The notes beneath the pieces are model-generated. The model searched no databases, was not told where the DNA came from, and saw only the letters and a program-made list of their open reading frames with translations. The position numbers and the translations under genes are program-made. Of a stretch of 64,000 bases of DNA, positions 6,719 to 60,230 are shown in pieces. Source of the DNA: Tubulanus polymorphus (taxonomy: Eukaryota; Animalia; Nemertea); the NCBI RefSeq assembly GCF_964204645.1, contig NC_134033.1:9556655-9620654 (forward strand), given 5' to 3'. Every line of letters starts with the position of its first letter. The stretch's first letter is position 1.

Positions 6719-7330
6719 TTATTTTATAAACTTATATTCATAGGGAAATTGTAATCTCAGTAATAATTTTGAACCTTTATTATTCTTTAATTTATTCATA
6801 TATTCATCATGTAATTCAGTAGGTATAATTTGATTTTCTTCCAATGATTGTTGCATAGATTTTCTATCTTTATTGTAGAATAAAACTAGAAGTCTTATAT
6901 TCTCCCTTAAGTCTTTAACAATTGAATTATATTTTTGATTTAAAACCCATGTTGTTATCCAAAAATGTCTCCCAGAGAAAGCTAAATAACATAACTCACT
7001 TTCTCTCACTTTTGAATCATGTAAATTTGCGCAATCATCTACAATGAATAATGTATTTGATCCTTTATAAGTATCAATTGCTATTTTAATACAATTATCT
7101 AAATTTTCTTTTACTGTTTTAGGGTCTAATATAATAAACTTTTTTATCTTAACTATATCTCTATTATATGTTTTATTCATTTCATAAGTAGGACAAAATA
7201 ATATTATATTATCAAAATGATTCTTATAAATAGTTTCTAACAAATCTAATATGAAATGTATTTTACCACAATTGGTTACTCCAGTAACTAACATATTATG
7301 CGGTTCGAATATAAATAAATCTTTATTCAT
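6719..7330 (-). CDS. A32/FtsK-HerA-like genome packaging ATPase (copy A)
   Basis: Walker A GVTNCGKI (the usual T/S is I), Walker B LFIVDD, GRH arginine finger and VLNQ motif. Confidence 0.9.
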   Translation of the reverse strand: MNKDLFIFEPHNMLVTGVTNCGKIHFILDLLETIYKNHFDNIILFCPTYEMNKTYNRDIVKIKKFIILDPKTVKENLDNCIKIAIDTYKGSNTLFIVDDCANLHDSKVRESELCYLAFSGRHFWITTWVLNQKYNSIVKDLRENIRLLVLFYNKDRKSMQQSLEENQIIPTELHDEYMNKLKNNKGSKLLLRLQFPYEYKFIK

Positions 7331-8552
7331 TTATTCTTTTAATTTTACTAGATAAAATCCATTCATTAAATTTATCATCGTATCCTTTATATTTCACCAA
7401 AGAATACTTTTTTCCTTTAAGAGTTTTTGTTTTCAATACTTTTTCTATTTTGTATTCTATTTCATCTGGATTTGGTACAAGTGATAATTCTTGTTCATAG
7501 AAATAACCTAATATTTCTTCATCTTTTAGATCTTCTAGTTTATAAACAAAAGGTTTAGTTAATATGATCTTTTTAATTTTAAATATTTCTTCTGTAAAAT
7601 TAGGGGTATAACCTTTATAAAAGGTTTTTCTATATTTAGATATTCTTACGTGTTGTCCAATTTTGAATCTAGGTTCACCGAAATCATGTGTAACAAACGC
7701 GCCATATAAATTATTCCAAAATATTTCTTCTGTAAAATTAGGGGTATAACCTTTATAAAAGGTTTTTCTATATTTAGATATTCTTACGTGTTGTCCAATT
7801 TTGAATCTAGGTTCACCGAAATCATGTGTAACAAACGCGCCATATAAATTATTCCAAACTATTTCCGAATTATCTTCTTTTCTAGCTTGTATAGGTTTCA
7901 TATTTATAGAACTATTTTTAGAATTATTATAACCTTTCACTAAATCATCTAATACATCGATATATTTATATGTTTCATTAGCAGTAAAATATTTCCACAT
8001 TCTAGTTTTCAATGTTTTATTAAATCTTTCTATAATAGATGCTTTTTTATCTGAGTGTGTTGAAATATATTCTACATCGTTATCAGATAATAGTTTTTTA
8101 AAATGTTTGTTATGAAATTCCTTACCTTCATCAAATTGTATCTTATCTGGAATAGCTTCTTTAAATATAGATTTAAAGGCATTTGTCACTTCTATTCCAG
8201 TTTTATTTTTGATTGGAATTGACCATGCGCATCTACTGAATATGTCTATAACATTTAATATCCAGAAATATCCTTTATTATGTTCCTCTAAGTTCTTCAT
8301 GTCAATTAAATCTGCTTGCCATTGTTGATCGATATATGAAACCATAACTTTTCTTGTTAAATAAGTTTTATCCATTTTCTTGTGTATTTGATATGTTGGT
8401 TGATTTTGTAACCGTGATTTTAATTCACTATATTTTATATCACCATTTTCATTATCAGATTTAATGTTATTCCATAATTCTGAAACGTTAGAATATGATA
8501 CTTCACTTTCTGGGTGATAATATAACTCTCTTAAATATTCTTCTTTTTTCAT
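7323..8552 (-). CDS. Retroviral-type (rve) integrase with C-terminal chromodomain and a 46-aa internal duplication (copy A)
   Basis: DDE motifs WQADL, FDEGKEF, ERFNKT; chromodomain YKIEKVL..LVKYKGY..FNEWI. Confidence 0.95.
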   Translation of the reverse strand: MKKEEYLRELYYHPESEVSYSNVSELWNNIKSDNENGDIKYSELKSRLQNQPTYQIHKKMDKTYLTRKVMVSYIDQQWQADLIDMKNLEEHNKGYFWILNVIDIFSRCAWSIPIKNKTGIEVTNAFKSIFKEAIPDKIQFDEGKEFHNKHFKKLLSDNDVEYISTHSDKKASIIERFNKTLKTRMWKYFTANETYKYIDVLDDLVKGYNNSKNSSINMKPIQARKEDNSEIVWNNLYGAFVTHDFGEPRFKIGQHVRISKYRKTFYKGYTPNFTEEIFWNNLYGAFVTHDFGEPRFKIGQHVRISKYRKTFYKGYTPNFTEEIFKIKKIILTKPFVYKLEDLKDEEILGYFYEQELSLVPNPDEIEYKIEKVLKTKTLKGKKYSLVKYKGYDDKFNEWILSSKIKRINE

Positions 8553-13544: not shown

Positions 13545-14343
13545 CTAATTATTGATGTCGATCTCCTGCAGTGCGTTGTTTCTTTTGGCGCTCGCCTTTA
13601 CGCGGTCTGGGGCGTATCTCAGCCAGTCCTTCATTGATATCGATCCTGGTGTGCTGGTTTCCACCGCGCTGTACTGTATCTGAATCGAAAGAAATTTTGT
13701 TCATACATCTGTTCAATAAAATATATGAATAAAAGAATCGGGAAAAACAGAACTACATACCTATAATGACCTTGGAAAGCCTTGTCGAGTTAAAGGCTGT
13801 TTTCGGAGCTTTCCCCAGCCAGTTGAATTCTGCTGCTAGTTTGTTGGAAAGCAGGGTCTTCATAATTGACTTTGTGGAATCTTTAGTCGTTTGCGCAGAA
13901 TACAAACTAAGGTACCCTATCTAGAACATAAAAAGATTGGTTTACACATAGGTTTATTTCTTCATTTCTAAGCAGCTCCAACGTTAATACAGAACCTTGA
14001 ATTTTATGATAATAATCACTTACCAGCCCTTCTCTGATAACCTGGTCGCCAAGTCTCCCCTCAAGCCTATCGAATTGCGTTTTCTCATCAAGAGGTAGAT
14101 CTATGTCGTCCGGTAATTTGGCTACTTCCGTTCGGTCCTGTTTTGTCAGCCTAGCGAGTGCCTTACTTTGGCGCTTTTGTTCTGATTTTACTTCGACCAA
14201 AAGCTCCAAAATTTTATCAAGTTTCCTTTCTAAAAGAAATAAGTATTTGTAAAAATGTAATGGATTTGATCGGAGTTTGATCAGTCAAATGAGAAATTAT
14301 CTGCATACTTACCAACTGATACAGAACTTGTACTGGTATCAAC
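13545..14343 (-). pseudogene. CACTA accessory gene (DUF4806-like), 3' exons
   Basis: Spliced pieces LPDDIDLPLD..LEGRL, IMKTLLSNKLAAEFNWLG and KDWLRYAPDR; continues the exon interrupted by copy B. Confidence 0.65.
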
Positions 14344-14806
14344 AGTAATAGGGATAATAGGCTTTCAGGCCAAAGGTCGAACGGTCGAGCTCGTAAAAAA
14401 TGAAAAACATAAAAATAATAACAATTTCTACTTGAATTACTCGCGAAACTCATAAAAATGAAAAATAAATTCTCACACGCTCGAATTTATTTTTCATTTT
14501 TATGAGTTTCACTCCTAATTCAAGTAGAAATTGTAATTATTTTTATGTTTTTCATTTTTACTCACCCGCCCGTTCAACCTTTAGCCTGAAAGCCTATTAT
14601 CCCTATTACTCTTAAAATATTCATATATATATGAATAACATTTAAATCATTGAACTTCTAAAATCAATTTTAATAAAAAATATAGTATTAAAATGGAAGC
14701 AAATAAGTACTACTGCCCAACATGTAATATCGATATAGACAAGTCTCAAAAAGCAAGACACAATAAAACTAGAACACATTTAGAGAATAAATTGAAACTA
14801 GAATAT
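14344..14806 (+). repeat. Left TIR of copy B (463 bp), including a fold-back hairpin at 14344-14610 and the first 38 codons of polB
   Basis: Reverse complement of 31974-32436; no mismatches noticed by eye. Confidence 0.95.
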
Positions 14807-17800
14807 AAGGATGATATATTAGAAACTAAATTAGAAGAATTAAAGAATGAAAAAGAAACATACAAATGTGATACATGTAATCAATTATTCAGTGATAAAA
14901 GATATTATAAAGAACATTTAAAATCTATAAGTCATATTAGAAATAAGAATAATGATATTTTAGGTGAAGATTATTTTGATAATGATAACGATAAGAAACA
15001 GAAGACAATTAAAAGAATAAAAAATAAATTAAACAATAAAAGACCATACATGGAAGATGTAAGAAATTATATTAATTCATTAGATAATAAAAAATATATA
15101 GAGATAACCGAAGCATTTAAAAGTGATATTGGTCCAGCAGCTATCGAGTTTAAATTTCATAAAGGAAAAACATTAGAAGAAAATAAAAAACATTTAGAAA
15201 ATATGAAAGAAATAATAAAAATAATTACAGATGTTGAATATCCTAAAATTAGTATATCAGTTAAAGTAAAGTTTATAAAATCTGAAGATAAACCAATATA
15301 TAATATAAATTCTCATTCACAACATATTATATCTAAACAACATATAGATGATAAATTAAATAAATGTTATAATGAAATAAAAACTAAAATAGAAGAGAAA
15401 TATTTTGAAGGATCTGGTTTAATATTTGATGAAATAATATTTATAACTTTACATGTTTATAACACAAAATATAATAAGTTAACTAAATCAAAACCAATTG
15501 ATGAAAATAATTTATCATATTATAAAGATGATAGTATAAATGGAACAAGTTATATTAAATTACCATTTAAAACTAATGGTGTAATAAATATACAAAATGA
15601 AGATGATAAATGTTTTCTATGGGCTATAATAAGTTGTTTACATCCAGTTGAAGATTATAATAAACATACTTATAGATTAACTCATTATAAACAATTTGAA
15701 AATAATTATAAGATAGATAAGTATCCTGTTAGAATTAAAAATATTCCAAAAATAGAAAGAGATAATAATCTTAAAATAAATGTATTTGATTTAATTAAAT
15801 TACCAAATACAAAAGGAAATAATATTAAACATTATACATTAGAACCTTTATACCTATCAAAAGATAATGATTCAAATAATGTTATAGATATACTATATTA
15901 TGAGAATCATTATATGTGGATTAAACAAATCGATTTATTTTTTAGAACAGAAAGTGATCACCATAATAAAATATATCTATGTAGAAAATGTTTACATAGA
16001 TTCAGTAATGAAAGTACATTATTAAATCATAAACAACTATGTGATAATCATGATTATTGTAAATTAGTTTTACCAAATGAAAAAGATAAAATATTAGAAT
16101 TCAAAAAATATGATTACAAAAATAAAGTACCATTTGTAATATATGGAGATTTTGAATCATTAAATAAAGAATTAACAGATAAAGATAGAAAAGATATATA
16201 TTATAAAAGAAAGAAATTAAATTCTAATGAAAGTGATTATTCAGAAGAACCACCAAAAACAAATACAATTAAAAAGATTGATCAATCAGCTGCAGCTTTC
16301 GGGTTATATATAAAATCTGATTATCCAGAACTAATTGAAAGTGAATATTATCATTATAGAAATGAAAATGTTATTAATCATTTTTGTGACTTATTAATTG
16401 AATATGAAATAAGATTTAGTAAATTATTGAATACAAATAAAGAAATAATTATGACAGAAGAAGATTTGCGTTTGCAGATAAATGTTATTATTGTGAAAAA
16501 CTATTTAATTATAAAGATAAAAGAGTAAGAGACCATGATCATTTGAATGGTAAATTTAGAGGCGCTGCACATGAGGTTTGCAATTTACAAGCCAAAAAAG
16601 TAAATTTTGTCCCCATTATATTTCACAATTTATCGGGGTATGACGCGAATTTATTCATTAAGCAACTGTGTCATAAAATAGAAGAAATTAATAATGAAAT
16701 AGAAATATTAAATTCAAATAAATCAAAAGATAAAATACCAACTTATAAATTTAGAATGTTAGCTAAAACATCTGAGAATTATATATCATTCCAATTTGGT
16801 TGTCTAAGATTTATAGATTCATATAGATTTTTAAATAGTTCATTAGATAACTTATCAAAATCATTAATTGATGATGAATTAAAGATATTAAAAGAATATT
16901 ACCCAAATTATGATGATTTTAAATTAATGAGATATAAAGGTGCAATTCCATATTCTTTCTATAAAAATCATAATGATTTTAAAATAACTGAATTATTGAA
17001 AGAACAATTCTATGATGAATTAAAAAATGAATATGTTAAAGATGTAGTATATAATAGAACATTGAATATTTGGAATCATTTCGAAATTAAAAATCATGGA
17101 CAATTAGTAGATTTATATTTAAAATCAGATGTATTATTATTAACCGATATATTCGAAAGGTTTAGAGATGTAAACCTAAAATATTTTAATATTGATCCTT
17201 GTCATTGTTATTCATCACCAGGATTAACATGGGATTGTGGATTAAAATTTACAAATATAAAAATGGATTTGTTAACAAATATAGATCAATTACTATTATT
17301 TGAAAAATCTATAAGAGGAGGTGTTTCAGGTGTATTAGGTGATAGATATTTCAATGTAAATGATAATCCTGGATATAAATTATTATACATAGATGCAAAT
17401 AATCTTTATGGTTGGGCAATGATGGAACCACAACCTTATGGGATGTTTGAAATAACTGAAGTTTTACAAATTGATAAATTTGATTGGAAGAAAAGAATCC
17501 TAGATATTGCAGATGATTCAGATACTGGTTACTTCTTTGTTGTAGATTTAGAATACCCTGAAAATATTAAATTTAAATCTAGAAATCTAGCATATTGTCC
17601 CGAACATAAAACTGTTAAACATGAAGAATTATCAAATTATCAAAAAAGAATTAAACCCGATAATCATATTCATACAGAAAAGTTAATGGTAACTCAAGAA
17701 GATAAATATAATTATGTAGTACATTATAGAATGTTGAAGTTCTAAAAAAAGTACATAGATATATTTCATTTAATCAATCTAAGTGGTTAGAAAAATATAT

Positions 17801-18695
17801 AGATTTTAATACTACACAGAGAACTGAAGCTAAAACTGATTTTGAGAAGGATTACTTTAAACTAATGAACAATGCGTTCTATGGAAAAACATGTGAAAAC
17901 ATAAGAAATAGAAATGATATTGAGTTAGTTAGTAATGGTAAAAGAATTAGACATTTGCAATCATATCCGAAATTCAAAGGTAATAGAATATTCGATGAAA
18001 ATTTAGCTGCAGTTAAATTAAAAAGAACTTCTATGAAGTTCAATAAACCTATTTATGTTGGAGCTGCAGTTTTAGAAATTTCAAAGCTATTGATGTATGA
18101 ATTCTATTATAATGTATTGCAACCCCATTTTGGGGAAAAACATATAGAAATCTTATATCTAGATACAGATTCTTACATATTAAAGATAAAAAGTGATAAC
18201 ATAACAAAAGACTTAAAAATATTAAAACACCATTTTGATTTCAGTAACTATCCAAAAAATCATGAATTGTTTAGCAATGATAATAAAAAAGTTCCCGGTA
18301 AATTCAAAGATGAATTAGGTGGTGAAGAAATGATAGAGTTCATAGGTATTAGATCTAAAATGTATTCATATAAAACTAAAGAACATGAAGCTAAAAAGTT
18401 AAAAGGAATAACCAAAAATGTAGTAGAAAAGAATATTCATTTTAAAGATTACATCAATTGTATATTTAATGAAGAAGTTAGAAAACATAAAATGAAATGT
18501 TTAAGATCTGAAGATCATGAAATGTATATTGAAGAGATAGAGAAGATAAGTCTAAACCCATTTGATGATAAAAGATATATTTTAGATGATGGAATCCACA
18601 CAGTCGCCTATGGTTGCAATTTAGATGAATATATAAAATTCAAAAGAGAAGAAACAAAAGAAAATGAGATTATGAAAAGGATTCTAACGTGTTAA
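14693..18695 (+). pseudogene. polB: Protein-primed family B DNA polymerase (copy B), broken by two small deletions
   Basis: Exonuclease motifs YGDFES and FHNLSGYD; polymerase motifs YIDANNLYG, K.MNNAFYGK and YLDTDS; N-terminal zinc fingers; EndoVII-like CYYC..RDHDH..G..H..CN insert. Deletions near 16465 and 17740 relative to copy C. Confidence 0.97.
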
Positions 18696-18723
18696 TAAAT
18701 TTCAATAAAAATTTGTATAATAA

Positions 18724-19065
18724 ATGGAGAGTAAACAAGTACACAGTGAATTCTTAGATAGAATTAAAGATACCACAAATGTAAAATCTGTAGATTATAA
18801 ATTCAAAAAACTAACTGAGTTAACAATTCACAAGAAATATTTAATTACAAATATTGTTACAGTTACTAACAAATATGGAGATAAATTAGTTATACACTTA
18901 GAATATGAAGGATTAAAAGGAAATACACATAAATTCAGAACTTATTTACCAGATAGATTTCATAGATTATCAAGTGAAGATCTAGAAGAATTATGTTCTG
19001 GAGATTTCTATTTCGTATACAAAGGTAAGAATGAAAAAGGGCACCACGATATTGATTTTGAATGA
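18724..19065 (+). CDS. Small conserved protein, possibly OB-fold nucleic-acid binding
   Basis: Conserved in B, C and D next to polB; pattern FKKL.EL....KY.I......NKYG..L...L....YLPDRF. The fold is an inference. Confidence 0.6.
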   Translation: MESKQVHSEFLDRIKDTTNVKSVDYKFKKLTELTIHKKYLITNIVTVTNKYGDKLVIHLEYEGLKGNTHKFRTYLPDRFHRLSSEDLEELCSGDFYFVYKGKNEKGHHDIDFE

Positions 19066-19080
19066 AAATATGTAAAATAA

Positions 19081-19840
19081 ATGGCGGAATTAAAAGAATA
19101 CAGAATATTTGTTGATTCTAGAAAACTTACAAATTATAAATCTCATAATTTATTAGTACAATTAGATAGAGAATTCAAGAATTGTGTAGATTTAAAATTA
19201 GTAAATATAAGTTTATGTAATTCTTTTTATAATATATCGAATAAAACTATTGAACATAATACTTTTTTAATTCATATTAGAAATATAAATAAATGGTTTC
19301 ATCTATTTCTAAGACCAGGATTATATAATTTAGAAACATTATCTCAAGAAATTAATCGTAGAGCACGGTTGAAAATTAGAAAAGATGATAAATTTTTAAT
19401 AAGATTTATAAAAAGTGATAGCTCAAATAGAATTAAAATAAAGATATTTGATGAAAGTCAACATGCATTTATGGTAAAAAAAACCTATAGCTAAATTGCT
19501 AGGAATTGAACCAGATGTTGTTACAGTAAACGTAGAAGGTATTTCAAATATAATACCTTTTACACATTTTTATATTTATTGCAATTTAATTGACCCAACA
19601 AAAACATTTGAAGCAACTAAAGATACAACATGTAATTCTAGTATATTAAATATTTTACCATTAAAAAATGTTAAAGAATTTGGAACGCAAATAAATTATA
19701 ATTTAACAGAATGTGATTTCAAACCATGCATTCCTCATTTTAATAATTTTAGATTAGAAATTAGAAATCATAATGGATACTTAATTGATTTAAATAATTT
19801 CCCTGTAATTTATGAATTAGTTATAAGATGTAAAGAGTAA
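19081..19840 (+). pseudogene. Minor capsid (penton-like single jelly-roll) protein, one frameshift near 19480
   Basis: IFVDSR, SFYNI, PGLYN, YIYCNLI and IDLNNFP motifs typical of Polinton/PLV minor capsid proteins; homolog at 52068..52822. Confidence 0.8.
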
Positions 19841-19856
19841 TTTTTTTATTATATAA

Positions 19857-20198
19857 ATGAATATAACTGTTGGACCGAGTATATGTTTTGGGTTTGATTT
19901 TAAACATGGTAAAGAAATGAGAATTAAACTAAATGATGTAATTACTGATATAAAAAGTAAATCATTTAACAATGCATCAATGATTGATAAAGAAAAGTAT
20001 AATATAGAAAAAGTAATTGATTTAATTAAATCACCTTTAGAATATTATGAATTAAATGAAGATGGAATTATTGAAGATATCAAAAACATATTATCCAAAA
20101 TATATGATAATCATAAAAGTAGTAATGAAATAAATGTTGAATTAATCATAAATAAGTTAACTAAATATTTTGATGATAGTAATTTTTTTGATAAATAA
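19857..20198 (+). CDS. Hypothetical Polinton protein (113 aa)
   Basis: Homolog in copy C (51719..52051); TAAATG start. Confidence 0.7.
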   Translation: MNITVGPSICFGFDFKHGKEMRIKLNDVITDIKSKSFNNASMIDKEKYNIEKVIDLIKSPLEYYELNEDGIIEDIKNILSKIYDNHKSSNEINVELIINKLTKYFDDSNFFDK

Positions 20199-20420
20199 AT
20201 GAGTGGTAATAAGTGGATAATAACTTGATTATATAATGGCGCATTATTATCAGTTGGAACTGTTGGTTATTCAATGGTATTAAAAAAAGTATTCAAAATG
20301 GGAAGTGTTAATGTTGATAGATTTGATATCAATGATATTCTAAAATTAACATTAGCAGTTACTTTATCTAATTTAACTATTGATTATTTAGAAAAACAAA
20401 AATATATTCCTCCCATATAA
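20199..20420 (+). pseudogene. Small hydrophobic 73-aa protein with an internal TGA (copy B)
   Basis: Intact homolog at 51472..51693 in copy C. Confidence 0.75.
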
Positions 20421-20445
20421 ATGCATAATTTTTTTTGCTAAATAA

Positions 20446-20868
20446 ATGGCTTCTGCAATTATAACTATTATAGGATCAGCAATTGTTAACGCTTTAGCAT
20501 TTACTGGTGGTGGTTATTTATTTAAACATATTGATAAAAATAGTTCATTAGGAGAACAAAGAAGACATAACTTAGCGTTAGAGAAATACAATAAAGCTGC
20601 AGAAGAATATAGAGAAAAGAGACAAAACTATATGGATTACATCAATAAAGAATTATATGATCAGAAGATTTCACATAGAGATTTTCAATCAGTTGATGAT
20701 GCAATGAGTTTATATAACACAGTAACCAATAAAGAAAAATTACATCTATACAAACCTAAATTATCAGATTATTATACCCCAAGTAAAGAACAACAGAAAT
20801 ATGAAATAATTTGGATTTTAGGTGGAACTGTTATTGTTATATTTGTAGCGTATAAGTTTACTAATTAG
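20446..20868 (+). CDS. Putative membrane protein (hydrophobic N- and C-termini, central coiled coil)
   Basis: MASAIITIIGSAIVNALAFTGGGYLF and IIWILGGTVIVIFVAY; homolog in copy C. Confidence 0.8.
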   Translation: MASAIITIIGSAIVNALAFTGGGYLFKHIDKNSSLGEQRRHNLALEKYNKAAEEYREKRQNYMDYINKELYDQKISHRDFQSVDDAMSLYNTVTNKEKLHLYKPKLSDYYTPSKEQQKYEIIWILGGTVIVIFVAYKFTN

Positions 20869-20887
20869 TAATTTTTTTTCTAAATAA

Positions 20888-21322
20888 ATGGAAGATAAAG
20901 TTGATAGTATTGATATTATTCCTCATGATATAAATAAAACTAAATTAAAAATATATTTAGAAAAACAAATATTAGAATTTGAAAGTGACTTAAAGATAAA
21001 AAAGAAAAAATATTTAAAAAGTAAAATTATATATTATTTGATTATAAGTGGTTCGGTTACAATTAGTTCTGTAATAACATTTCTAGCAATATTCAGTCCA
21101 TTAACACCTTTAGCTATATCAATTGGTGTATTAGGATTAAGTTCAAGTGTTTTAACTGGTATAAGTTCAAAATTAAATATAAAAAGTAATAAAGAAAAAA
21201 TAAAATCTAATATAAAAGAAATTAATAAATTAAAGAATACACTAGATTATATAATAAGTTTAAATGGTCATATAACAGTTGAAGAACAAGATAAATTATT
21301 AAAAGAATTAATAAATTATTAA
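20888..21322 (+). CDS. Two-TM hairpin membrane protein flanked by coiled coils
   Basis: About 45-aa hydrophobic stretch IIYYLIISG...VLTGI; homolog in copy C. Confidence 0.8.
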   Translation: MEDKVDSIDIIPHDINKTKLKIYLEKQILEFESDLKIKKKKYLKSKIIYYLIISGSVTISSVITFLAIFSPLTPLAISIGVLGLSSSVLTGISSKLNIKSNKEKIKSNIKEINKLKNTLDYIISLNGHITVEEQDKLLKELINY

Positions 21323-21338
21323 TTTTTTAGTTATATAA

Positions 21339-22721
21339 ATGGGGTTTCCAAAAGCTTTCCGATATAATAAATCAATTAAATATAATATTCCAGCAATAGA
21401 TTTTAATAAAGATATTACATATAGAAATGAAGTTTTAGATTCATTAACTAATTTAGAAATTTATGTTACTGAAACTAATAATTTTAATGCAAAGATGGAA
21501 AATATATTTCATGTATATTTAATTAATTTTAAAAAATTGAAATATGAAAAACAATGGTTATTAAAATCTAATATGAAGTATTGGCAGAATCAATTAAATT
21601 TTGCTGTTTATTGTGCAACAACAGGATGTGGAATAAGTTGGAATGATCATTTGAATAATTCTAAATATAAATTAATTCAAAGTTTATTTAGATTTCATAC
21701 ATACTTTCAAATCAGAATAATATTAAATGAATTAGAGTGTGCTTTACCAGGATCTAGGTATTTCAAAGAATTGGATAATAATATTAATTTATCAAAGTTT
21801 TATAAAATTTGCAATGAATTTAATATAGATATAAATAATTCTGATTTTAGAACAAAAATTGGAACAATAAGATCACTTCCTTGCCCTAAAAAGATTGCAG
21901 AATATTGTGCACTTCCCATACCATCTAATAGTTTTTATAATATCTATAATAAAAAATTAGGTTATGGTAAAATAGAAACAAAGGATTTAGAAACATTAAA
22001 TTTCAATAAATTACCAAAATTTTATGATAATTTAAAACAAGAAAACAATAATGGTTGGGTTTATTTTATTTTAGAAAATAGTGAAGGTTTTACTAAATCA
22101 GGTATAGAAAGAATAAATCAATCTATTAGAACTTATTTGATTTGTATTCTAGGATCACAAGTTGAAACAAGATCACCGATAATAGGAAATTTAAATACAT
22201 CATTTGATACACAAAAACAATTTAAAGTTTTATTTGAAGATTCCATACATAATGATAAAAATAGATCGATTCCAGAAAACATTATAAGATATCAAAATTA
22301 TTTAGATAAATCTCATGTAAGACTTAATTATTGTATAGGCCCTAATCTATTAATTATTTCTAATGATTTAGTATTAAAGATGGGAAACATAATTGGTTAT
22401 AATAATCTAACTAAAACCGCAACAATAAATAATTCATTTGGATTGAATGATATAAATAAAAAGATTATTACTGCTCCAAAATTAATGGAAGGTGAAAAAA
22501 ATAAAAAACACATTCAATCAACAGAAACTAAAACTAAGAATATTAAATTAAATAATGATTCTAAAATAAAAGATTACAATACTACAGAAAATAATAGAAC
22601 TGATAAAATTCAACATGATATAATTAAACTAAATGATGATAATAAATCCCATGAAAATACTAAATTAGCTATAACTTGTATAGGAATTGTAATCGGAGGA
22701 ATATTATATTTTAAATTTTAA
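21339..22721 (+). CDS. 460-aa conserved protein with C-terminal membrane anchor (putative virion protein)
   Basis: Intact ORF; WQNQLNFAVYCATTGCGIS motif; present in A, B and C; ends in LAITCIGIVIGGILYF. Confidence 0.8.
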   Translation: MGFPKAFRYNKSIKYNIPAIDFNKDITYRNEVLDSLTNLEIYVTETNNFNAKMENIFHVYLINFKKLKYEKQWLLKSNMKYWQNQLNFAVYCATTGCGISWNDHLNNSKYKLIQSLFRFHTYFQIRIILNELECALPGSRYFKELDNNINLSKFYKICNEFNIDINNSDFRTKIGTIRSLPCPKKIAEYCALPIPSNSFYNIYNKKLGYGKIETKDLETLNFNKLPKFYDNLKQENNNGWVYFILENSEGFTKSGIERINQSIRTYLICILGSQVETRSPIIGNLNTSFDTQKQFKVLFEDSIHNDKNRSIPENIIRYQNYLDKSHVRLNYCIGPNLLIISNDLVLKMGNIIGYNNLTKTATINNSFGLNDINKKIITAPKLMEGEKNKKHIQSTETKTKNIKLNNDSKIKDYNTTENNRTDKIQHDIIKLNDDNKSHENTKLAITCIGIVIGGILYFKF

Positions 22722-22737
22722 TTTTTTTATTATGTAA

Positions 22738-24430
22738 ATGGATGTAGAAGGTGGAGAAGATATTCCATTGGATGACATGGGAAATAATAATGAAGGATAT
22801 ATTGATAATGATTATAATGATGCAGAACCTAATATTGATAATGATGATGAATCAGCATATAATACTAATTTAGGTGAAGATGATGATTATGATGATGATG
22901 ATGATCCCGAATTACGTGAAAAATTAAATAAATATTTAGAAGCTCCTGAAAGGGGTAGAATTTCAACTAGAAGAGAAAGAAAAGAATTAATGGAACTATT
23001 AGAAAAACAACAAGAAAAATATCCTGATGAACCTATGGAATTATATTAAATGAAATCTAGAGTAACAGATACAATTGTTAACGAATTATTACCATCAGAT
23101 GTAACAGATGAAATTGATACTGAAGGTGTTGTAGAACAAATTTTTAAAGATGACCCATATTTCACAAATAATTTAGAATTTAAAAATGATGCATGGTATT
23201 ATAATCTTGATTTAAATAGGAATATTGTAACAATTCAATTATCTAAAATGGGTCAAGAAAATATTTTTGAACCTGAAATGCGAGCAAGATCTACAATTGA
23301 AAATTCAAAAGGTGGTAGAGAATTTCTCAGAATTATATGGAATGCAATCGATAGAATAAATGAAAAAGAACCAATTCCTAATATTGATATAAACAAATAT
23401 TCACCATTTAAAAATCCAAATCCTACTGATTTTGATCCAGAAATGGAAGAGAATAGAAATCGATTAGATAGATTGAGATCTTCAACACCCGAAACATCGA
23501 GAAGAGACACTCAACAAATTGATAATTATTCAAGTGAATTACAATTAGAAAAACAAATTGATAGATTAAGAGATTCAGAAGAACTAATGAATAGTATATC
23601 AGATACATCTGGTTCTGAAACTGGAATAAATCGACTGCAATATTTACTAGAAAAAGGATTTCTTAATTTAACTGATGAAGAATTAGAAGCATTTCCTGAA
23701 CAAATACGTAGAGAAATTAAAGGTATACAAGTATCAGCTGATGAAATTGCTAATATTAAGATGAGATTTTCTAAAATAACCATGTTAGAAAAAGAATTAG
23801 TTAATGTAGATGAAGAATTAAAACAATTAGATTTAAATAGAAATCATCAATTAAGCTGATTTTGAAAGCAGAAAGTTAGCTTTAGTAAAAGAAATAGATG
23901 ATTTAGAATATAACATAAAATTACAAAAAGAAGAAAGAGATATATTATTAAAATCATATGATCTTAATCATATTAAAAAATTAAAAGTTATTTTTAAAGA
24001 TTTGTTGATTAAACCAGATTCTGAAATATCATTAAAAGACAGAATAAAATTGTTATTTAAATTAGAAGGAATAACAATTCTTTCAATTCTAACAGGTGTA
24101 ACTATGGTATTTACAACAATTGGTTTAGCAATATCAAATGCTTTAAAATCTACTCCCACTCCCAATAAACCAGATAAACCTCCAGGAAATAATTCTATAC
24201 AAGATAAAGTTAAAGATGGTTTAAAGAAATTAGCAAAATATTTATGGGAACTATCTAAAAAATCTGCTGCAGCTTTACCAGGAGTTATTGCTTCAATTGT
24301 TGGTTTTATATTGAAATCTGCTGGGAATATTCTTAACTTTGCTGCTGAACATATTATTTTATTTTTAATTACAGTTGTAAGTGCTATTATTTTTGGGTTA
24401 GTGAATATGATATCAAAAAATATCAAGTAA
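22738..24430 (+). pseudogene. Large acidic/coiled-coil protein with C-terminal multi-helix membrane domain (copy B; stops at about 23047 and 23857)
   Basis: Same-strand consecutive fragments; the C-terminal 142 aa are nearly identical in A and C. Confidence 0.8.
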
Positions 24431-24484
24431 ACCATGATATCAAAAAATATCAAAAAATAAATAATTAATTTTTTTGTTAAATAA

Positions 24485-25722
24485 ATGAGTGGGAGTTATA
24501 TCAATCCTTCTAAGAATCATAGAATATCTAATGCTATTAAAGCAGAAAGATCACATCATATAACCCTTCAAATATTAATCCCGATGAAACTTTATACGTT
24601 AGAATTCCTAGATTAACACAAAATACTTTTTATGTACCAAATAGTATTTATTTATCAGCTGATATAAAAGTAATCGGTAATAATAATAATTATGTCGTTG
24701 ATAATGTTGGAAGATATTTGATTAAAAAGTTAACAATAAAGATTGGTCCAGAAACAGTTTTCTCATTAGATGATTATAATTTATTTATGCATTATAAAGA
24801 TTTATGGTTAACTAAAGAAAACAGAAATAATATGATATTTCAAGGAATTCAATCAGAAAACCAAAATAAATTAAGATCAGAAGCTAATAGCGCAATATTA
24901 ACAAATGATGTAGATAAATTGATAAAAAGTATATATGGAAGCAAATATAAAATTCCATTAGACTTTGAATTGATAAATAATAATGCACCTTTATATAAAT
25001 ACGCAATTCAAGAAGATATTATATTTGAGATAACATTTGCTCCTGTAAATGAAATTGTATTATCTAGCGTTAATAAAGATATGAGTTATAAATTATCGAA
25101 TATATGTTTAGAATATGATACAGTAACTGATGAAAATATTTCAAGTATAATTCAAACTAAATACAATCAAGGGTTTTCATTATTATATGATTATATTGAT
25201 AAATTTAAAACTGTAACTATTAATGCAAATGATGAAATAATAAATGAGAATATTAACTTTCCTAGAAGATCTATTAAAGGTATATTAATATTTTTTACCA
25301 TTGGAACGTATACTAATGGCGCAATAAATGTTGATAATTATTATAATCCTGAAATAACAAAAGTAGAAATAACTATCGAAGGAATAGCAAATAAAATATT
25401 TTGTCAAGGAATGAGAATGATTGATCAATGGCCAGAAATTAGAAAACATTTTATGAATGAAAAAGTAAAATCATTTGAAAATTGTAACATTAATCAAATT
25501 GATTATTATACCGGTAATAAATTTGCATTATGGTTAGATTTTAGAACAACTGAAGATAATTCATTACATGGTTCTGGAAAAAAATTACAAAATACAAAAG
25601 ATGGAATACAATTATTCATGAAAAAGAAAAAGGGAATTAAAAATTTTAAAATGCACATTTATATTATATCTGACGCGCAATTAAATATTGTAAATTCACA
25701 ATTAGATAGTGTTATGTATTAA
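24485..25722 (+). pseudogene. Major capsid protein (putative double jelly-roll), one frameshift near 24562 (copy B)
   Basis: Start MSGSYINPS at 24485 as in copy C; the 334-aa ORF is the C-terminal part. Confidence 0.8.
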
Positions 25723-25754
25723 AATTTTAACTTTAATAAAAATATATATAATAA

Positions 25755-26714
25755 ATGGAAGGAGGTAAAGTATATAAACATATTCCATACATCGATACAC
25801 ATGAAAATAATGATGGTTTATATTATGTAATACCTTGTAATATAGCTTTGATATTTGATCCTATTTTTAAAAATTATAAAACTAAACTAATAGAAATCGA
25901 TAATAATAAAAGTGAAGTTGTTGATAATTTAAGTAATGTAATTGATGATAATGTAATACCTTCTACATCTAATAACGTAATACCTTCTACATCTAATAAT
26001 GTAATACCTTCTACATCTAATAACATAATACCTTCTACATCTGTAATACCCTCTACATCTAATAATGTAATACCTTCTACATCTAATAATACAATAATAT
26101 TAAATGTTAGTGAAAATAGAAATTATTGTGGTTATTGTAATGGTGAGTTTTCAAACGCTCCATCAAATTGGAATAAACATATGAATACAAATTCACATAT
26201 TACTAATGTTATAGAACGTGTTGGCAAAAAAGAATTTATAGAACACCCATTTAGATATGTTACAAAATTTGTTTCAAATAAAAAAGTAAATGGTGAAAAA
26301 ATATATGAAGATTTATTATTAGCAACACCTAATAAAGATGAATTAGATTTAACCGATGCTAATGAAATATTAGGATCAAACACTGTAAATGAAATATTAG
26401 GATCAAACACTAATAAAGATGATAATGATAATGATGCCATAAAGCACCCACATGATAATATAGTTACAGATAAACATATTGATAATAAAGATTCTATAAA
26501 ACTTAAAGTAGAAAATAATGATAAATTTGATTGGATCAATAAGCTTAACAATAAAACAACTATTGATGATTTAGTAAAAAATGTGAAAAAGGTGAAAAAG
26601 GTGAAAAAAAATTATAAAGATGTTGATGTAGATTCGGTAGAGCATTTAAATATGTTGTTAGAGCCGTCTGATAGTGAAAGTGATTCAGAAATTGATTATC
26701 TAAAACTTGAATAA
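25755..26714 (+). CDS. Repeat-containing zinc-finger protein (copy B)
   Basis: (NNVIPSTS)n, CGYC..HMNTNSH and an acidic tail. Confidence 0.75.
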   Translation: MEGGKVYKHIPYIDTHENNDGLYYVIPCNIALIFDPIFKNYKTKLIEIDNNKSEVVDNLSNVIDDNVIPSTSNNVIPSTSNNVIPSTSNNIIPSTSVIPSTSNNVIPSTSNNTIILNVSENRNYCGYCNGEFSNAPSNWNKHMNTNSHITNVIERVGKKEFIEHPFRYVTKFVSNKKVNGEKIYEDLLLATPNKDELDLTDANEILGSNTVNEILGSNTNKDDNDNDAIKHPHDNIVTDKHIDNKDSIKLKVENNDKFDWINKLNNKTTIDDLVKNVKKVKKVKKNYKDVDVDSVEHLNMLLEPSDSESDSEIDYLKLE

Positions 26715-26784
26715 TAAAGGTTAAAAATTGTATAAAATAATAGTAAATAAAAAAGGGGTTTAAATTATTTAAGGTATCTAATAA

Positions 26785-26880
26785 GGTATCAGGTATTAGG
26801 GTATCAGGTATTGGGGTATCAGGTATTAGGGTATCAGGTATTAGGGTATCAGGTATTGGGGTATCAGGTATTAGGGTATC
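26785..26880. repeat. 15-bp tandem repeat (gtatcaggtattagg)n between convergent gene blocks
   Basis: About 6.5 copies directly visible. Confidence 0.9.
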
Positions 26881-26902
26881 TAATACATAGGTATACAAAT
26901 AG

Positions 26903-27229
26903 TTATTTTATAAATTTATATTCATAAGGAAATTGTAATCTCATTAATAATTTTGAACCTTTATTATTTTTTAATTTATTTATATATTCATCATGTAATT
27001 CAGTAGGTATAATTTGATTTTCTTCCAATGATTGTTGCATAGATTTTCTATCTTTGTTGTAGAATAAAACTAGAAATCTTATATTCTCTCTAAAATCTTT
27101 AACAATTGAATTATATTTCTGATTTAAAACCCAAGTTGTTATCCCAAAATGTCTACCAGAGAAAGCTAAATAACATAACTCACTTTCTCTAATTTTAGAA
27201 TCATGTAAATTTGCGCAATCATCAATAAT
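26903..27229 (-). pseudogene. Packaging ATPase C-terminal half (copy B); Walker A half deleted
   Basis: IDDCANL..GRH..VLNQ retained; fused to the integrase tail through a filler sequence. Confidence 0.9.
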
Positions 27230-27258
27230 TTGTTGATTATTCTGTATTCTATTTGTAG

Positions 27259-28226
27259 CTATTTTGTATTCTATTTCATCTGGATTTGGTACTAATGATA
27301 ATTCTTGTTCATAAAAATAACCTAATATTTCTTCATCTTTTAAATCAAACAATTTATAAACAAATGGTTTAGTTAATATTATCTTTTTAATTTTAAATAT
27401 TTCTTCAGTAAAAATTGGGGGTTTAACCTTTATAAAATGTTTTTCGATATTTAGAAATTCTAACATGTTGTCCTATTTTAAATTTAGGTTCTCCAAAATC
27501 ATGTGTAACAAATGCTCCATATAAATTATTCCAAACTATTTCTGAATTATCTTCTTTTCTAGCTTGTATAGGTTTCATATTTATAGAACTATGTTTAGAA
27601 TTATTATAACCTTTAACTAAATCATCTAACACATCGATATATTTATATGTTTCATTAGCAGTAAAATATTTCCACATTCTAGTTTTCAATGTTTTATTAA
27701 ATCTTTCTATAATAGATGCTTTTTTATCTGAGTGTGTGGAAAAATAATCTACATCGTTATCAGATAATAGTTTTTTAAAATGTTTGTTATAAAATTCTTT
27801 ACCTTCATCAAATTGTATCTTATCTGGGATAGCTTCTTTAAATATTAATTTGAAAGAATTTGTAACTTCTATACCGGTTTTATTTTTAATCGGGATACTC
27901 CATGCGTATCTACTGAATATGTCTATAACATTTAATATCCAGAAATGTCCTTTGTTGTGTTTTTCTAAGTTCTTCATGTCAATTAAATCAGCTTGCCATT
28001 GTTGGTCAATATATGAAACCATTACTTTTCTTGTTAAATATTTTTTATCCATCTTTTTATGAATTTGATATGTGGGTTGATTTTGTAACCATGATTTTAA
28101 TTCACTATATTTTATATCACTATTATCGGATTTAATTTTATTCCATAATTCTGAAACGTTAGAATATGATACTTCACTTTCTGGGTTGTAATATAACGCT
28201 CTTAAATATTGTTCTTTTTTCATCAT
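27259..28226 (-). pseudogene. Integrase (copy B); catalytic core intact, frameshift near 27420, chromodomain deleted
   Basis: DDE motifs as in copy A. Confidence 0.92.
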
Positions 28227-28229
28227 ATT

Positions 28230-28574
28230 TTAATCCATTAATAATATTTTAGATTTAGTTTCATTTGACTTATTTTCTGGTATAATAGGTTTATCATCAT
28301 TGGAATAATATTTATCATCAGATTTGAATTTTGATTTATATATTACACCGGATAATATAATAACTGTTACTAATCCAATTGTAATATATAATTTATAATT
28401 ACTTCCAGCATTAGAAGAATTAGATGGATTATTATTTGAATCAATATCAGATTCATTTATATCAGTTAATTTCTTTTTCTTAGCTTTTTTTAATTCTGAA
28501 GATTTTTTACCTAATTCTCTTGCCCATTTAATTTGTTTCTCGGATCTAGCCTTTTTCTTAACTCCATCACTCAT
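28230..28574 (-). CDS. Small basic single-TM protein (copy B)
   Basis: Homolog of 8559..8927. Confidence 0.75.
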   Translation of the reverse strand: MSDGVKKKARSEKQIKWARELGKKSSELKKAKKKKLTDINESDIDSNNNPSNSSNAGSNYKLYITIGLVTVIILSGVIYKSKFKSDDKYYSNDDKPIIPENKSNETKSKILLMD

Positions 28575-28579
28575 TTATT

Positions 28580-29167: not shown

Positions 29168-29574
29168 TTATATTAGAGAAAAAAAGCAAAAAAAATATTA
29201 TAAGTATTCTTCAAATGATACTAGATAGTTAAAGTTAAAGAATTCTAGTATTGACTACTGATACTAGCTATTTGAATTTAAAGAATTTCTATTTGAATCT
29301 ATTCAAAATATAAAGTATTCTTTTTGAAAAGAAAGTATTAAAAATATAATAGAATTCACTAGCTAGTTGAAGTTATTGTTTTTTTATTATATTTTATTTG
29401 AATTAGGATTTAATATCTCACTACTATTGTCTATCTATTAGGAGCAGTAATTATAACTGTCCAGATAAGTCATTTCGGATTCTCGATATCAAATCCTCAA
29501 CTGAAAATCAACTCAACGAAACGACTGGTGGAAATATTAATTTATAAACACATATATTTATTATGTAAATTTTA

Positions 29575-31073: not shown

Positions 31074-31757
31074 CTAACCACTGATCAAAACCTCAGAATG
31101 CGGTTGATTCTGTGAAATACTATTCCATAATTCAACAAATGTCTTTGCTTTATCCAGTTGATCTAAATATAACTGTAAATCTAGTTTATTGGATTTAATA
31201 ATGTTTTCCTTCTTTTCTAAAGGTCTTAGATTCTTCCAATTCCAAATAAGTTTTTTATTGTATTCATCATTCATGTCAAATTTAGAAATCGGCAACACAT
31301 GATCAATATGAAAGTATTCACCATAATTATCTATATTCATTTTATCGTCGAATTGATATATTATCCATGATTTGAGAAATTCATCTGAACAACCCAACAA
31401 ATTAGATAGTGTTTCTGAATGTGTTTCTTTGTTGAATAATTGTGATACTTTAGATCTCAAACATTGTTTTAATCTAAAATTAAAATCTGTTTGATATCTT
31501 TCTTTATGATAATTTCTATTATACACTTTAATATATTCTAAATGATTTTCTTTCCATTGCTTATTTTTATCTTTGCGTGTTTCAGTATTATTTTTATAAT
31601 TTTGTTTATCACTTAGTTTACTACAAGTTTTACAATAACTTTGCTTACCATCTTTCTGAGTTTTATAATTATAATATTCCGAGAGTTGTTTTTTTATTTT
31701 ACATTTAGAACATTTCTTATTGTTTATATTTATAGCTTGTGATTGTTCCGGCTCCAT
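31074..31757 (-). CDS. HNH endonuclease with N-terminal CxxC..CxxC zinc ribbon (copy B, intact)
   Basis: KKCSKC..YCKTC and FHIDHVLP..NLRPL..ENIIKSNK. Confidence 0.88.
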   Translation of the reverse strand: MEPEQSQAININNKKCSKCKIKKQLSEYYNYKTQKDGKQSYCKTCSKLSDKQNYKNNTETRKDKNKQWKENHLEYIKVYNRNYHKERYQTDFNFRLKQCLRSKVSQLFNKETHSETLSNLLGCSDEFLKSWIIYQFDDKMNIDNYGEYFHIDHVLPISKFDMNDEYNKKLIWNWKNLRPLEKKENIIKSNKLDLQLYLDQLDKAKTFVELWNSISQNQPHSEVLISG

Positions 31758-31793
31758 TTATTATACATATTTTTATTAAAATTGATTAACATT

Positions 31794-32087: not shown

Positions 32088-32436
32088 TTTAATACTATAT
32101 TTTTTATTAAAATTGATTTTAGAAGTTCAATGATTTAAATGTTATTCATATATATATGAATATTTTAAGAGTAATAGGGATAATAGGCTTTCAGGCTAAA
32201 GGTTGAACGGGCGGGTGAGTAAAAATGAAAAACATAAAAATAATTACAATTTCTACTTGAATTAGGAGTGAAACTCATAAAAATGAAAAATAAATTCGAG
32301 CGTGTGAGAATTTATTTTTCATTTTTATGAGTTTCGCGAGTAATTCAAGTAGAAATTGTTATTATTTTTATGTTTTTCATTTTTTACGAGCTCGACCGTT
32401 CGACCTTTGGCCTGAAAGCCTATTATCCCTATTACT
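31974..32436 (-). repeat. Right TIR of copy B
   Basis: Reverse complement of 14344-14806. Confidence 0.95.
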
Positions 32437-37240: not shown

Positions 37241-37429
37241 AGTAATAGGGGTAATAGGCTTTCATATCAAAGGTTGAAGGGGCGAGTGAGTAAAAAAATG
37301 AAAATAATAATAATTTACAGTTGAATTAGGAGTGTGCGCGACTAATTCAACTGTAAATTATTGTTATTTTCATTTTTTACGAGCTCGACCCTTCGACCTT
37401 TGGTATGAAAGCCTATTATCCCTATTACT
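37241..37429. repeat. Terminal fold-back hairpin at the right end of copy A
   Basis: agtaatagggg...ccctattact imperfect palindrome of 189 bp. Confidence 0.9.
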
Positions 37430-41474: not shown

Positions 41475-42058
41475 AGTAATAGGGGTTTAGTTGTTCTAGA
41501 TCAAAGGTCGAACGGTCGAGCTCATTAAAAAACAAATATTAAAAGTAATTTAAAACTATAATATATTTTCATAGCCGTGTGTATTTTATATTATAACTAA
41601 ATATTTATTCTAAGATATTAATAATTTAAATTTTAAAAGCATTTTAAAATCAATTGGTCGCTCCGCGACCAATTGATTTATTTACAATACACAAATTCAT
41701 ATAATCAAATATATTCAAATAATAATAATTATTATATTATTTAACTAAAATACACACGACTATGAAAATATATTATAGTTTTTAATTACCTTTAATATTT
41801 GTTTTTAATGAACTCGACCGTTCGACCTTTAACCTAGAACAACTAAACCCCTATTACTCTTAAAATATTCATATACATGGATAAAATATAAATGAATAAC
41901 ATATATAAGTAATTAAAAAAGTAGGCTTTCAAGCCAAAGTACGAGAGTACGAGCTCTTATAGAATAGATATATAGATATATTTTAAACATTATTTCAATA
42001 TTTATATTTGTATGAGTTAGATTTTTAAACATTAAAAGTGTTAGTAAAGTGTGATTGA
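41475..42058 (+). repeat. TIR of copy C with fold-back hairpin at 41475-41858
   Basis: Inverse match to 57307-57915, apart from an about 25-bp indel at the hairpin tip and scattered substitutions. Confidence 0.93.
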
Positions 42059-57306: not shown

Positions 57307-57915
57307 TCAATCACACTTTACTAACACTTTTAATGTTTAAAAATCTAACTCATACAAATATAAATATTGAAATAATGTTTAAAATATATCTATATATCTA
57401 TTCTATAAGAGCTCGTACTCTCGTACTCTGGCTTGAAAGCCTACTTTTCTAATTACTTATATATGTTATTCATTTATTTTTTATCGATGTATATGAATAT
57501 TTTAAGAGTAATAGGGGTTTAGTTGTTCTAGGTTAAAGGTTGAATGGTCGAGTTCATTAAAAACAAATATCAAAAGTAATTTAAAACTATAATATATTTT
57601 CATAGTCGTGTGTATTTTAGTTAGATAATAGAATAATTATTATTATTTGAATATATTTGATTATATGAATTTGTGTATTGTAAATAAATCAATATGTCGC
57701 GGAGCGGAGCTTCAGCGAAGCGGAGCGACCAATTGATTTAATACAATATGCTTTTAAAATTTAAATTATTAATATCTTAGAATAAATGTTTAGTTATAAT
57801 ATAAAATACACACGGCTATGAAAATATATTATAGTTTTAAATTACTTTTAATATTTGTTTTTTAATGAGCTCGACCGTTCGACCTTTGATCTAGAACAAC
57901 TAAACCCCTATTACT
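57307..57915 (-). repeat. polB-side TIR of copy C with fold-back hairpin
   Basis: Inverse of 41475-42058. Confidence 0.93.
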
Positions 57916-58762: not shown

Positions 58763-60230
58763 CTGATTGTTTAGACCTGTGTTTGGATATCTATCGCTTA
58801 CATACACAAGTCCCGTTCTCTCATGACTTTGTAAGTTTAGGGAAGTGAGGTTTGTTGTTAAGCCTATAAGCTTGTTTGGAAATATCTAGACGTCTTCCCA
58901 TCCCTCTCTCTTTTTGTTGATGAGTTTTGGGAGAAGGAGAGAGGCATGAGAAAGGGAAAAAGGATAGATAGTCGCCACATCTGATCATCTGGGTCCCTAC
59001 ATATTCAATCGGAATGGGAAAGTCATTTCCTCCCAATACTCTATAGTGGACGAGTATACATAGGGGGAGTTGATGTCACTGGGGAAACGGATAGTTTCTC
59101 AGTGACATCAGCGACACCAGTGTAATAATCTGACACTACACAGTTTGCCTGAAGACTCGGTGGACGATGAGTCCGTATTGTGGCTGGATGGACCCTCACG
59201 TTTCCCCTCTGGTGTTGACTTACGATCCGCTTTTTGGCTCCCTCCCACCCTCCCTATCTCTAGCTTTCTTGCCTCCATTTACATTCGTCCGCGAAAAGTC
59301 ATTTCCTCCCAATACTCTATAGTGGACGAGTATACATAGGGGGAGTTGATGTCACTGGGGAAACGGATACATTCATTAAATGGTACTTATCAGATATAAT
59401 TCACATATCCGAGCTCGAAATATTCCATCTTACAAAACAACGAAAAGAACGAGTCGTTGTACTGATGCACTATGCACTAAGCGAAGTTTGAATGAGTCGT
59501 GGTGGAAGATAATTATACAACAGTTAGTTGCATGAACAAAGGAATAATTACCTGATCATGTACACAATGGCCCTATAGGCTCGAAACTAGAATAGCACGA
59601 TAATAATTAGGCCCAAAGCATTACGTTACTTTGAATGTTCACTATACTCTATGTTTTTATGGAACAGAAAATTTACAATGACTTCAACTTCAAAACACAA
59701 TTCTCATTTTTGAGCTGCATTAGAACTTTGAATTTACTAGTTCTTTTTAAACCGCACAGTCTATCCAGAAACGCAGAGAGTTTAGAACAGTTTAATTGTT
59801 TTTTAAAGCAATAAATGTTTTTTCCCCTGCCGTCTCTCCATAAAACCTAGTCGATGTCTTAGACTAGCAAATCAAGTTATTCAGTCTCTCTACGTATTGT
59901 TATCACAAGTTAAAGGGGTACACCACACATTTTAAACATACAACATGAAATAAATTTTAATAAAAAACAAATTCTCGCACGCTCGAATTTATTTTTTATT
60001 TTTTACTCACACAACCTTTCAACCTTTAATCTGAAACAACATATATACAATTACTCTAATATTTATATATATGAAAATCATATTTAAATGAAATCAATTT
60101 TAAAATTTGTAAAATAAATGGAGAGGAAACAAGTACACAGTGAGAACAACAAATCTTTTTTAGATAGAATCAAAGATATACCAATGCTAAATCTGTAGAT
60201 TATAAATTCAAAAAGTTAAATGAATTAACA

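Follow-up and report, generated by a model that had tools for sequence, protein, structure and literature searches.

The ends of the Polinton copies analysed here are long imperfect palindromes, the imperfections of which nearly all favour folding of one strand, so that they are likely to act as single-stranded DNA (ssDNA) hairpin caps. This strand polarity is the main new result of the analysis and the one most worth following.

Polinton copies and their terminal palindromes

Four related Polintons (A, B, C and D) lie within the window (1906-64000), the window being the whole 64-kb stretch of DNA under study. Element B (14344-32436; 18,093 bp) possesses 463-bp TIRs that are 100% identical, and element C (41475-57915) possesses TIRs of ~600 bp with 92.9% identity. 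The right end of element A is at 37429, and no left end of A was found within the 64-kb window. Element D is cut by the window edge, with loss of its outer left end. The 6-bp TSDs of B and C (CTTGTG in the case of C) adjoin the outer ends and abut the outer AGTAAT. The terminal features are as follows.

14338..14343, + strand: left TSD of B, ATCAAC (second copy at 32437-32442)
14344..14806, both strands: left TIR of B, 463 bp, same as the right TIR; holds the first 38 codons of pPolB
14344..14610, both strands: left terminal palindrome of B, 267 nt; the - strand (3'-terminal) folds best as DNA, at -114.2 kcal/mol vs -103.2 for the + strand
14445..14510, both strands: palindromic tip module of B, a 62-nt gap in the alignment of A; polymorphic in the family
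32170..32436, both strands: right terminal palindrome of B, exact mirror of the left one and of the same orientation
37241..37429, both strands: right terminal palindrome of A, 189 nt; tip closed by tandem GA/GA on the 3'-terminal (+) strand
41475..41858, both strands: left terminal palindrome of C, 384 nt; tip GCGGAGC on the 3'-terminal (-) strand
57507..57915, both strands: right terminal palindrome of C, 409 nt; tip with three GCGGAGC and one GCGAAGC on the 3'-terminal (+) strand
~59960..60055, both strands: remnant in D; tandem GA/GA tip and inner arm kept, outer arm lost

The palindromes that a preliminary description had placed at the left end of B, the right end of A and the left end of C were recovered with the same boundaries, and the remnant that it had noticed in D was identified as a tip and an inner arm only. 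The mirrored right-hand copies that it had assumed are exact for B but not for C, in which the right palindrome has 409 nt vs 384 on the left. The stems quoted there were likewise found, except that the last quoted pair of A is a wobble. In total, imperfect palindromes are present at all five complete ends of the window (267, 267, 189, 384 and 409 nt). Folded as ssDNA, as had been proposed, these termini reach -66 to -118 kcal/mol, with z values of -22.1 to -27.6 (each against 40 dinucleotide shuffles). The stems contain ~13% mismatches, and the outermost 25-27 bp are the most perfect part. AGTAATAGGG occurs 10 times in the window, each time at an outer or inner palindrome end, and the same 10 bases follow the inner end at all five complete ends. 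According to the alignment, the palindrome of B equals that of A plus a 62-nt tip insertion.

The first 127 nt of the two ends of C are identical, and five differences are found across the matching 113 nt of the inner arm; this hints at homogenisation of outer ends between TIRs. B resides in a 25-kb insertion (~11570-36944) that splits A, has imperfect inverted ends starting with CCC, and is presumably EnSpm/CACTA-like. A 699-aa ORF within this insertion (33768-35867, - strand) has no family match. Tandem-repeat arrays were observed in host-side DNA (246-999, 1071-1524 and 41025-41440), and the stretch 2-330 is present again, inverted, in the insertion carried by C (48645-48974).

Strand polarity of the hairpins

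Stem positions of the window copies were each counted once, with loops left out and also the AT-rich centre of C (~p113-175), which aligns poorly. Of 13 transitions, 12 are G·T when read on the strand that closes the element with its 3' end, and C·A on the opposite strand (P=0.0017). The sole exception is private to the right end of C. All nine transitions that are not private to one end, i.e. that are present in at least two ends or as a common read variant, have G·T on the 3'-terminal strand (P=0.002). The G·T vs A·C counts of non-terminal inverted repeats in the fetched loci, used as a control, were unbiased (12:10, 6:7 and 2:4). In DNA folding, the 3'-terminal strand is 9-11 kcal/mol lower at all four distinct window ends, and RNA energies prefer the same strand in five of five ends, including that of a metagenomic relative, L004.

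In A, B and D, the 3'-terminal strand has tandem 5'-GA/5'-GA at its larger bubbles (p48-49, p98-99 and p130-131 of B; p48-49 and p89-90 of A; the tip of D), and C has Watson-Crick pairs in their place at p48-49. The G·T and GA/GA sites of the 3'-terminal strand correspond to C·A and C·T mismatches on the 5'-terminal strand. Tandem GA/GA forms stable sheared pairs in DNA, and the pairs found here would probably adopt this sheared geometry. The GA/GA bubbles are not independent observations, as they may all be copies of one ancestral tip. Six C-GNA-G cores were identified on 3'-terminal strands and none on 5'-terminal strands; all are located at tips, in C and L004 only, and the tips of A, B and D have no GNA triloop. 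The portion of PMC13037366 that deals with GCGNAGC mini-hairpins describes them as exonuclease-resistant and the RNA counterpart tested as much less stable.

Because only the 3'-terminal strand is tuned for folding, a displaced strand would gain one good cap, not two. The single-stranded intermediate suggested in the preliminary description is still the best reading, but a hairpin at each end of the displaced strand, as envisaged there, is not.

Gene content

The family combines a pPolB with TP and vOTU, an rve integrase, a packaging ATPase, and TIRs flanked by 6-bp TSDs, all of which are hallmarks of Polintons/Mavericks. The genes concerned are listed below, together with those of an associated nuclease and a probable capsid protein.

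14693..18695, + strand: pPolB gene of B, in three broken ORFs, with an LF/PAD-like terminal-protein fold and an OTU fold in the first
24787..25722, + strand: probable capsid protein ORF, feature matches 0.95-0.98
26903..27466, - strand: A32-like packaging ATPase piece of B, under the Pfam cut-off
27423..28226, - strand: rve integrase of B, rve E 3.6e-9
31074..31757, - strand: endonuclease VII/HNH-like nuclease adjoining the right TIR; phrog_1035, E 1.6e-15
5243-5818 of L004, 4941-5609 of L005 and 4178-4846 of L007: nuclease gene in relatives

The pPolB matches PF03175 of Pfam (E 2.3e-10), and C307 and H406 are nearly invariant in its alignment. In the predicted structure of the first piece (pLDDT 84), residues 130-261 match the LF/PAD of Y-family polymerases (Z 8.4, rmsd 3.0, 104 aligned) and residues 292-415 match OTU (Z 7.5, rmsd 3.5, 99 aligned), and the best Foldseek row for this piece is a little-finger domain (E 6.5e-3); a low-quality single-sequence model of the TP region (pLDDT 57) was left out. 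The Z values are modest, yet both predicted folds are found in the expected order. The TP-vOTU order is presented as the protein-priming architecture of Polinton polymerases in the corresponding part of PMC11071308, and the hairpins thus coexist with a predicted protein-priming polymerase. Genes begin just inside both TIRs of B; since the TIR carries the first 38 pPolB codons, the right TIR opens a 97-aa pPolB-like ORF (31794-32087) with the same N-terminus as pPolB.

The ORF at 24787..25722 has no Pfam, PHROG or NCBIfam match, and the clusters that it matches carry capsid Pfams on 10-18% of their members, the recognition value being low. The copy of the A32 ATPase in A (6719-7330) passes the Pfam cut-off (Pox_A32, E 2.3e-10), and the integrase of A (7323-8552; rve, E 2.2e-8) shows an additional weak chromodomain match. 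The named relatives of the integrase are from marine invertebrates, which makes an animal host probable. No family match for an adenain-like protease or a penton was obtained among the scanned ORFs (Pfam, PHROGs and NCBIfam), and none for an HUH/Rep nickase in 21 ORFs (Pfam) or 14 ORFs (PHROGs), several ORFs carrying no annotation. Sequences homologous to the nuclease were identified in A, C, L004, L005 and L007 by tblastn, all close relatives retaining the gene, and no convincing solved structural relative of it was found; its gene lies beside the right TIR in the window and just behind pPolB in the metagenomic loci. A conserved 113-aa ORF is located behind pPolB in B (18724-19065) and between the TIR and pPolB in D (60102-60636, interrupted), L004 and L005. 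It has three homologues and no structure match, and is by its position a candidate single-strand-binding protein.

Paired changes and distribution in the family

Pairing is kept across A, B, C and L004 by two-sided changes, as the preliminary description had suggested for the window copies. Two-sided Watson-Crick changes number 3 to 12 in each comparison, and were found at 3 of 50 positions between A and B, at 12 of 50 between A or B and C, and at 7-12 of 28 in comparisons with L004. Over the first 28 positions, 25-27 sites of an outer arm can pair with the inner arm of the same end, compared with 11-20 when the inner arm is taken from another lineage (A/B, C or L004). Compensatory changes alone are no proof of selection, because hairpin-templated repair also yields them.

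The family was further surveyed in one raw Illumina run carrying the same species label but originating from another study, with ~12 of every 100 of its reads being used. An assembly artefact was rejected because 373 reads of B type and 132 of A type from this independent study cross the two loop types. The read depth declines from 2602 at the outer end to 2050 immediately ahead of the inner end and 1968 immediately behind it (ratios of 0.79 and 0.96), indicating that an inner arm is present in most of those ends that are similar enough to align; this inner-arm depth and the loop-crossing reads bear out the presence of the palindrome in most family members. In addition, 1560 and 437 reads continue beyond the outer end into DNA of mixed sequence (agreement 0.35), indicating many insertions that terminate at the outer AGTAAT. 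The short form lacking the tip module (joint 14445-14510) is represented by 121 reads. Reads part from B at 14647 (496 reads) and 14806 (316 reads), as would be expected if two TIR lengths were common among family members. Five pairs of outer and inner variants lie at complementary positions and have similar shares: 14354/14600 (0.50/0.58), 14359/14595 (0.41/0.53), 14382/14572 (0.25/0.25), 14408/14547 (0.24/0.18) and 14411/14544 (0.52/0.55). These pairs are unphased, come from the best 40 of 72 variant rows, and may reflect a few subfamilies.

Relatives outside the window were sought by self-comparison of 83 loci, in which 15 inverted repeats were inspected. L004 contains the sole complete AGTAAT-bounded palindrome (257 nt, upstream of pPolB) among the 83 loci. 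This metagenomic locus is diverged, its pPolB being 69-72% identical in the N-terminal piece; its arms are diverged as well, with C·A at p15 and p27 and a GAA triloop on the 3'-terminal strand. The two strands of L004 fold alike as DNA (-69.4 vs -69.5), and its stem shows only a weak bias (A·C 4, G·T 2). L005 begins within such a terminal palindrome, and the loci of the other two close relatives have no upstream DNA. The remaining inverted repeats of the 15 were dropped as non-terminal (internal inversions, other repeats and contig-end fold-backs). No palindrome was found in the upstream DNA of the more distant L008 and L010-L012, the contigs of which may not reach the element end. Long palindromes (218-443 nt) lie near pPolB of distant relatives (L064/L065, 4358-4693; L069, 1-443; L077, 2765-2982) and have neither AGTAAT ends nor strand polarity. 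A search of viral contigs found neither a match to the 20-base inner-junction pattern nor a locus for the pPolB queries, and integrase alignment led to three distant loci. The hairpin ends are a real and conserved feature of a bona fide Polinton family.

Orientation of the palindromes

The palindrome orientation is the same at all window ends. When the inner arm served as the sole reference, outer-type letters were found in 760 of 1727 reads at 14576 and in 919 of 1889 at 14583. When both arms served as reference, they were absent from the best 40 of 72 variant rows (lowest share ~0.15), so that the diagnostic variants fell from 44-49% to less than ~15%, and the host-like loose end behind 14610 was absent from the best 6 of 189 loose-end rows. 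The flip/flop isomers that the preliminary description had proposed to look for are therefore below ~15% in these reads, vs ~50% for free flip/flop; the estimate refers to integrated copies only and is still compatible with a rare isomer. Elements ending at the inner AGTAAT, for which it had also suggested a search, are not among the best loose-end rows either. In an AAV/poxvirus-type flip/flop replicon with hairpin transfer, both isomers are present at comparable frequency, whereas one orientation dominates here.

Possible role of the hairpins

We give about an even chance to the explanation that we consider best, namely, that the outer 190-410 bases of the TIR form an ssDNA hairpin that caps a replication intermediate at its 3' end and is copied end to end through protein priming. 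pPolB would start at one end and displace a strand, the released 3' end of which would snap back on itself, with no need of the other TIR at a distance of 16-18 kb. The cap would be steadied, on the 3'-terminal strand only, by its G·T wobbles, tandem GA/GA pairs and GNA loops, and would protect the 3' end and present it for protein-primed restart. The terminal protein would then prime opposite the extreme 3' end and the polymerase would copy the hairpin end to end, thereby preserving the orientation of the mismatches. Pairing would be kept by selection, probably with the help of hairpin-templated repair, and hairpin length would change via palindromic insertions at the tip. The integrase would act on full duplex ends at the outer AGTAAT. 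From the strand polarity, we infer that the 3'-terminal strand adopts a single-stranded, folded state in vivo.

Two proposals of the preliminary description fit this geometry poorly. The duplex origin that it postulated would not be a blunt duplex: once folded, the 3'-OH is paired to the inner AGTAAT and a 5' tail remains, which would make the fold-back an origin-like duplex and a primer-template junction at once. A local integrase substrate is unlikely because a single strand offers one 3'-OH and concerted integration needs both ends; furthermore, the TSDs and the host-like read ends are at the outer end.

The protective cap is favoured because it keeps the orientation without an extra enzyme. 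Against it, a paired 3'-OH should be extendable and nothing was found that would keep the hairpin from priming itself, local hairpins should at equilibrium be less stable than the perfect 463-bp panhandle of B, the strands of L004 have equal energies as DNA with a weak stem bias, and RNA energies also pick the 3'-terminal strand in five of five ends.

The same fold-back geometry would provide a ready primer, and it is conceivable, although unlikely, that the folded 3' end primes the second strand parvovirus-style, that the endonuclease VII/HNH-like protein nicks the old terminus, and that the palindromic 3' overhang is finally filled by Streptomyces-like terminal-protein priming, with the orientation kept. 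This scheme fits the polarity of the 3' strand, the lack of flip/flop and the retained terminal-protein fold; the nuclease is found in A, B, C, L004, L005 and L007, the palindrome is similar in length to the ~300-nt Streptomyces overhang, and some parvovirus termini are described in a single form in the relevant section of PMC8242256. However, the extra steps that it needs are all conjectural, the nuclease family, with its varying gene position and no solved relative, may be ordinary mobile HNH, and no ORF gave an HUH/Rep match (21 in Pfam, 14 in PHROGs). A hybrid of parvovirus-like priming and Streptomyces-like patching, a route not known to have been described for any virus, is quite unlikely to operate here.

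The palindromes may also be by-products, without a selected role, of fold-back copying of the end, hairpin-templated repair and strand-biased deamination. Deamination of an exposed strand would produce the G·T polarity with no need of selection, insertions at the tip look like duplications of arm modules in palindromes of variable length (189-409 nt), and the outermost 25-27 bp are the most perfect. We regard this explanation as improbable, since the two-sided changes at p39, p65 and p68 occur inside mismatches persisting at p28-49, which copying from the end would erase, deamination would not give rise to tandem GA/GA or GNA loops, and the architecture is kept in L004 despite its diverged arm sequence. 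Even a by-product of this kind would imply folding of the strand in vivo.

Folding of RNA instead of DNA appears distinctly improbable. Outward transcripts from TIR promoters would fold and terminate transcription, act as decoys for antiviral sensors or yield small RNAs; G·U and tandem GA are hallmarks of RNA too, the 3'-terminal strand folds better as RNA in five of five ends (L004 included), and genes start just inside both TIRs. C-GNA-G triloops, however, are DNA-type stabilisers, with the much less stable RNA counterpart mentioned above (PMC13037366); the stem reaches precisely to the final base of the element and no further, although a transcript would not require this; and no Rfam family was matched at the gathering score, generic miRNA-hairpin matches being far below it. 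Finally, cruciform excision, in which the palindrome would extrude in the chromosome and be cut diagonally by the endonuclease VII-like protein so that the 3' ends leave folded, is very improbable: the arms are AT-rich, a junction-resolvase-like annotation lies beside the TIR and one diagonal cut would leave the tuned hairpin on the element, but ~13% mismatch disfavours extrusion, both strands must fold, the nuclease label is a PHROG annotation only, and no palindrome footprint joined to host DNA at the inner AGTAAT is among the best 6 of 189 loose-end rows.

Comparison with known systems

Animal Polintons/Mavericks, as characterised in sections of PMC8097293 and PMC11071308, share with the present elements a pPolB with TP and vOTU, an rve integrase, an A32 ATPase, TIRs of several hundred bp, 6-bp TSDs, a size of 16-18 kb and a 5'-AGT start; they end in (AGT)2, whereas the elements described here end in AGTAAT and carry long terminal palindromes. 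The main text of the vertebrate and nematode Polinton surveys makes no mention of hairpins or palindromes, and a literature search confined to articles proper found no report of long polar hairpins in pPolB Polintons. Terminal palindromes as such are not wholly new: parts of a recent preprint (bioRxiv 10.64898/2026.07.28.741278) describe palindromes within the TIRs of virophages and one PLV subtype and propose hairpin priming. In Halocafeteria virophages and PLV subtype 4, the palindrome also lies in the TIR next to the TSD, but it measures 52 nt in the figured subtype and occurs preferentially in non-pPolB elements of a protist, compared with 189-409 nt in pPolB elements here. Strand polarity, covariation and an isomer test do not appear in the sections of the preprint considered here. 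Some casposon TIRs hold palindromes as well, according to part of PMC4046053.

In Streptomyces telomeres, as portrayed in portions of PMC4513846 and PMC5449611, the palindromic 3' single strand of ~300 nt is capped by GNA loops closed by sheared G·A and is filled by protein priming, and here, too, GNA loops and G·A pairs are on the 3'-terminal strand. Streptomyces telomeres have several short palindromes, an internal origin, Tap/Tpg and no B-family polymerase, whereas the present elements have one long stem, a pPolB and an integrase, and the resemblance, although the closest of those compared here, is an analogy only. Parvoviruses replicate by a rolling-hairpin mechanism that uses an HUH nickase. 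They have an ssDNA genome without protein priming, and no HUH gene was detected here among the scanned ORFs; their terminal palindromes with mismatch bubbles are similar, and single-form ends are among those covered in PMC8242256. Poxvirus hairpin telomeres are likewise incompletely paired, with structure taking precedence over sequence, but both complementary isomers are present in the account given in part of PMC8956199, whereas one orientation is dominant here and the palindrome is integrated as an open duplex. The adenovirus/PRD1 panhandle model also involves protein-primed strand displacement with TIRs; in the portion of PMC11886824 devoted to it, there is no local end hairpin, and direct evidence for panhandles is said to be still lacking even for adenovirus and PRD1. 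A panhandle is still conceivable for the TIRs described here.

What is known of Polinton replication comes almost entirely from models borrowed from adenovirus. The polar wobbles, tandem GA and GNA loops record in the sequence itself which strand folds as ssDNA in a Polinton with a retained protein-priming polymerase, and suggest convergence with the ends of Streptomyces and parvoviruses. The natural hairpin ends give defined oligonucleotide substrates for distinguishing priming from self-extension, and mismatch polarity is a simple statistic that is usable across Polinton collections.
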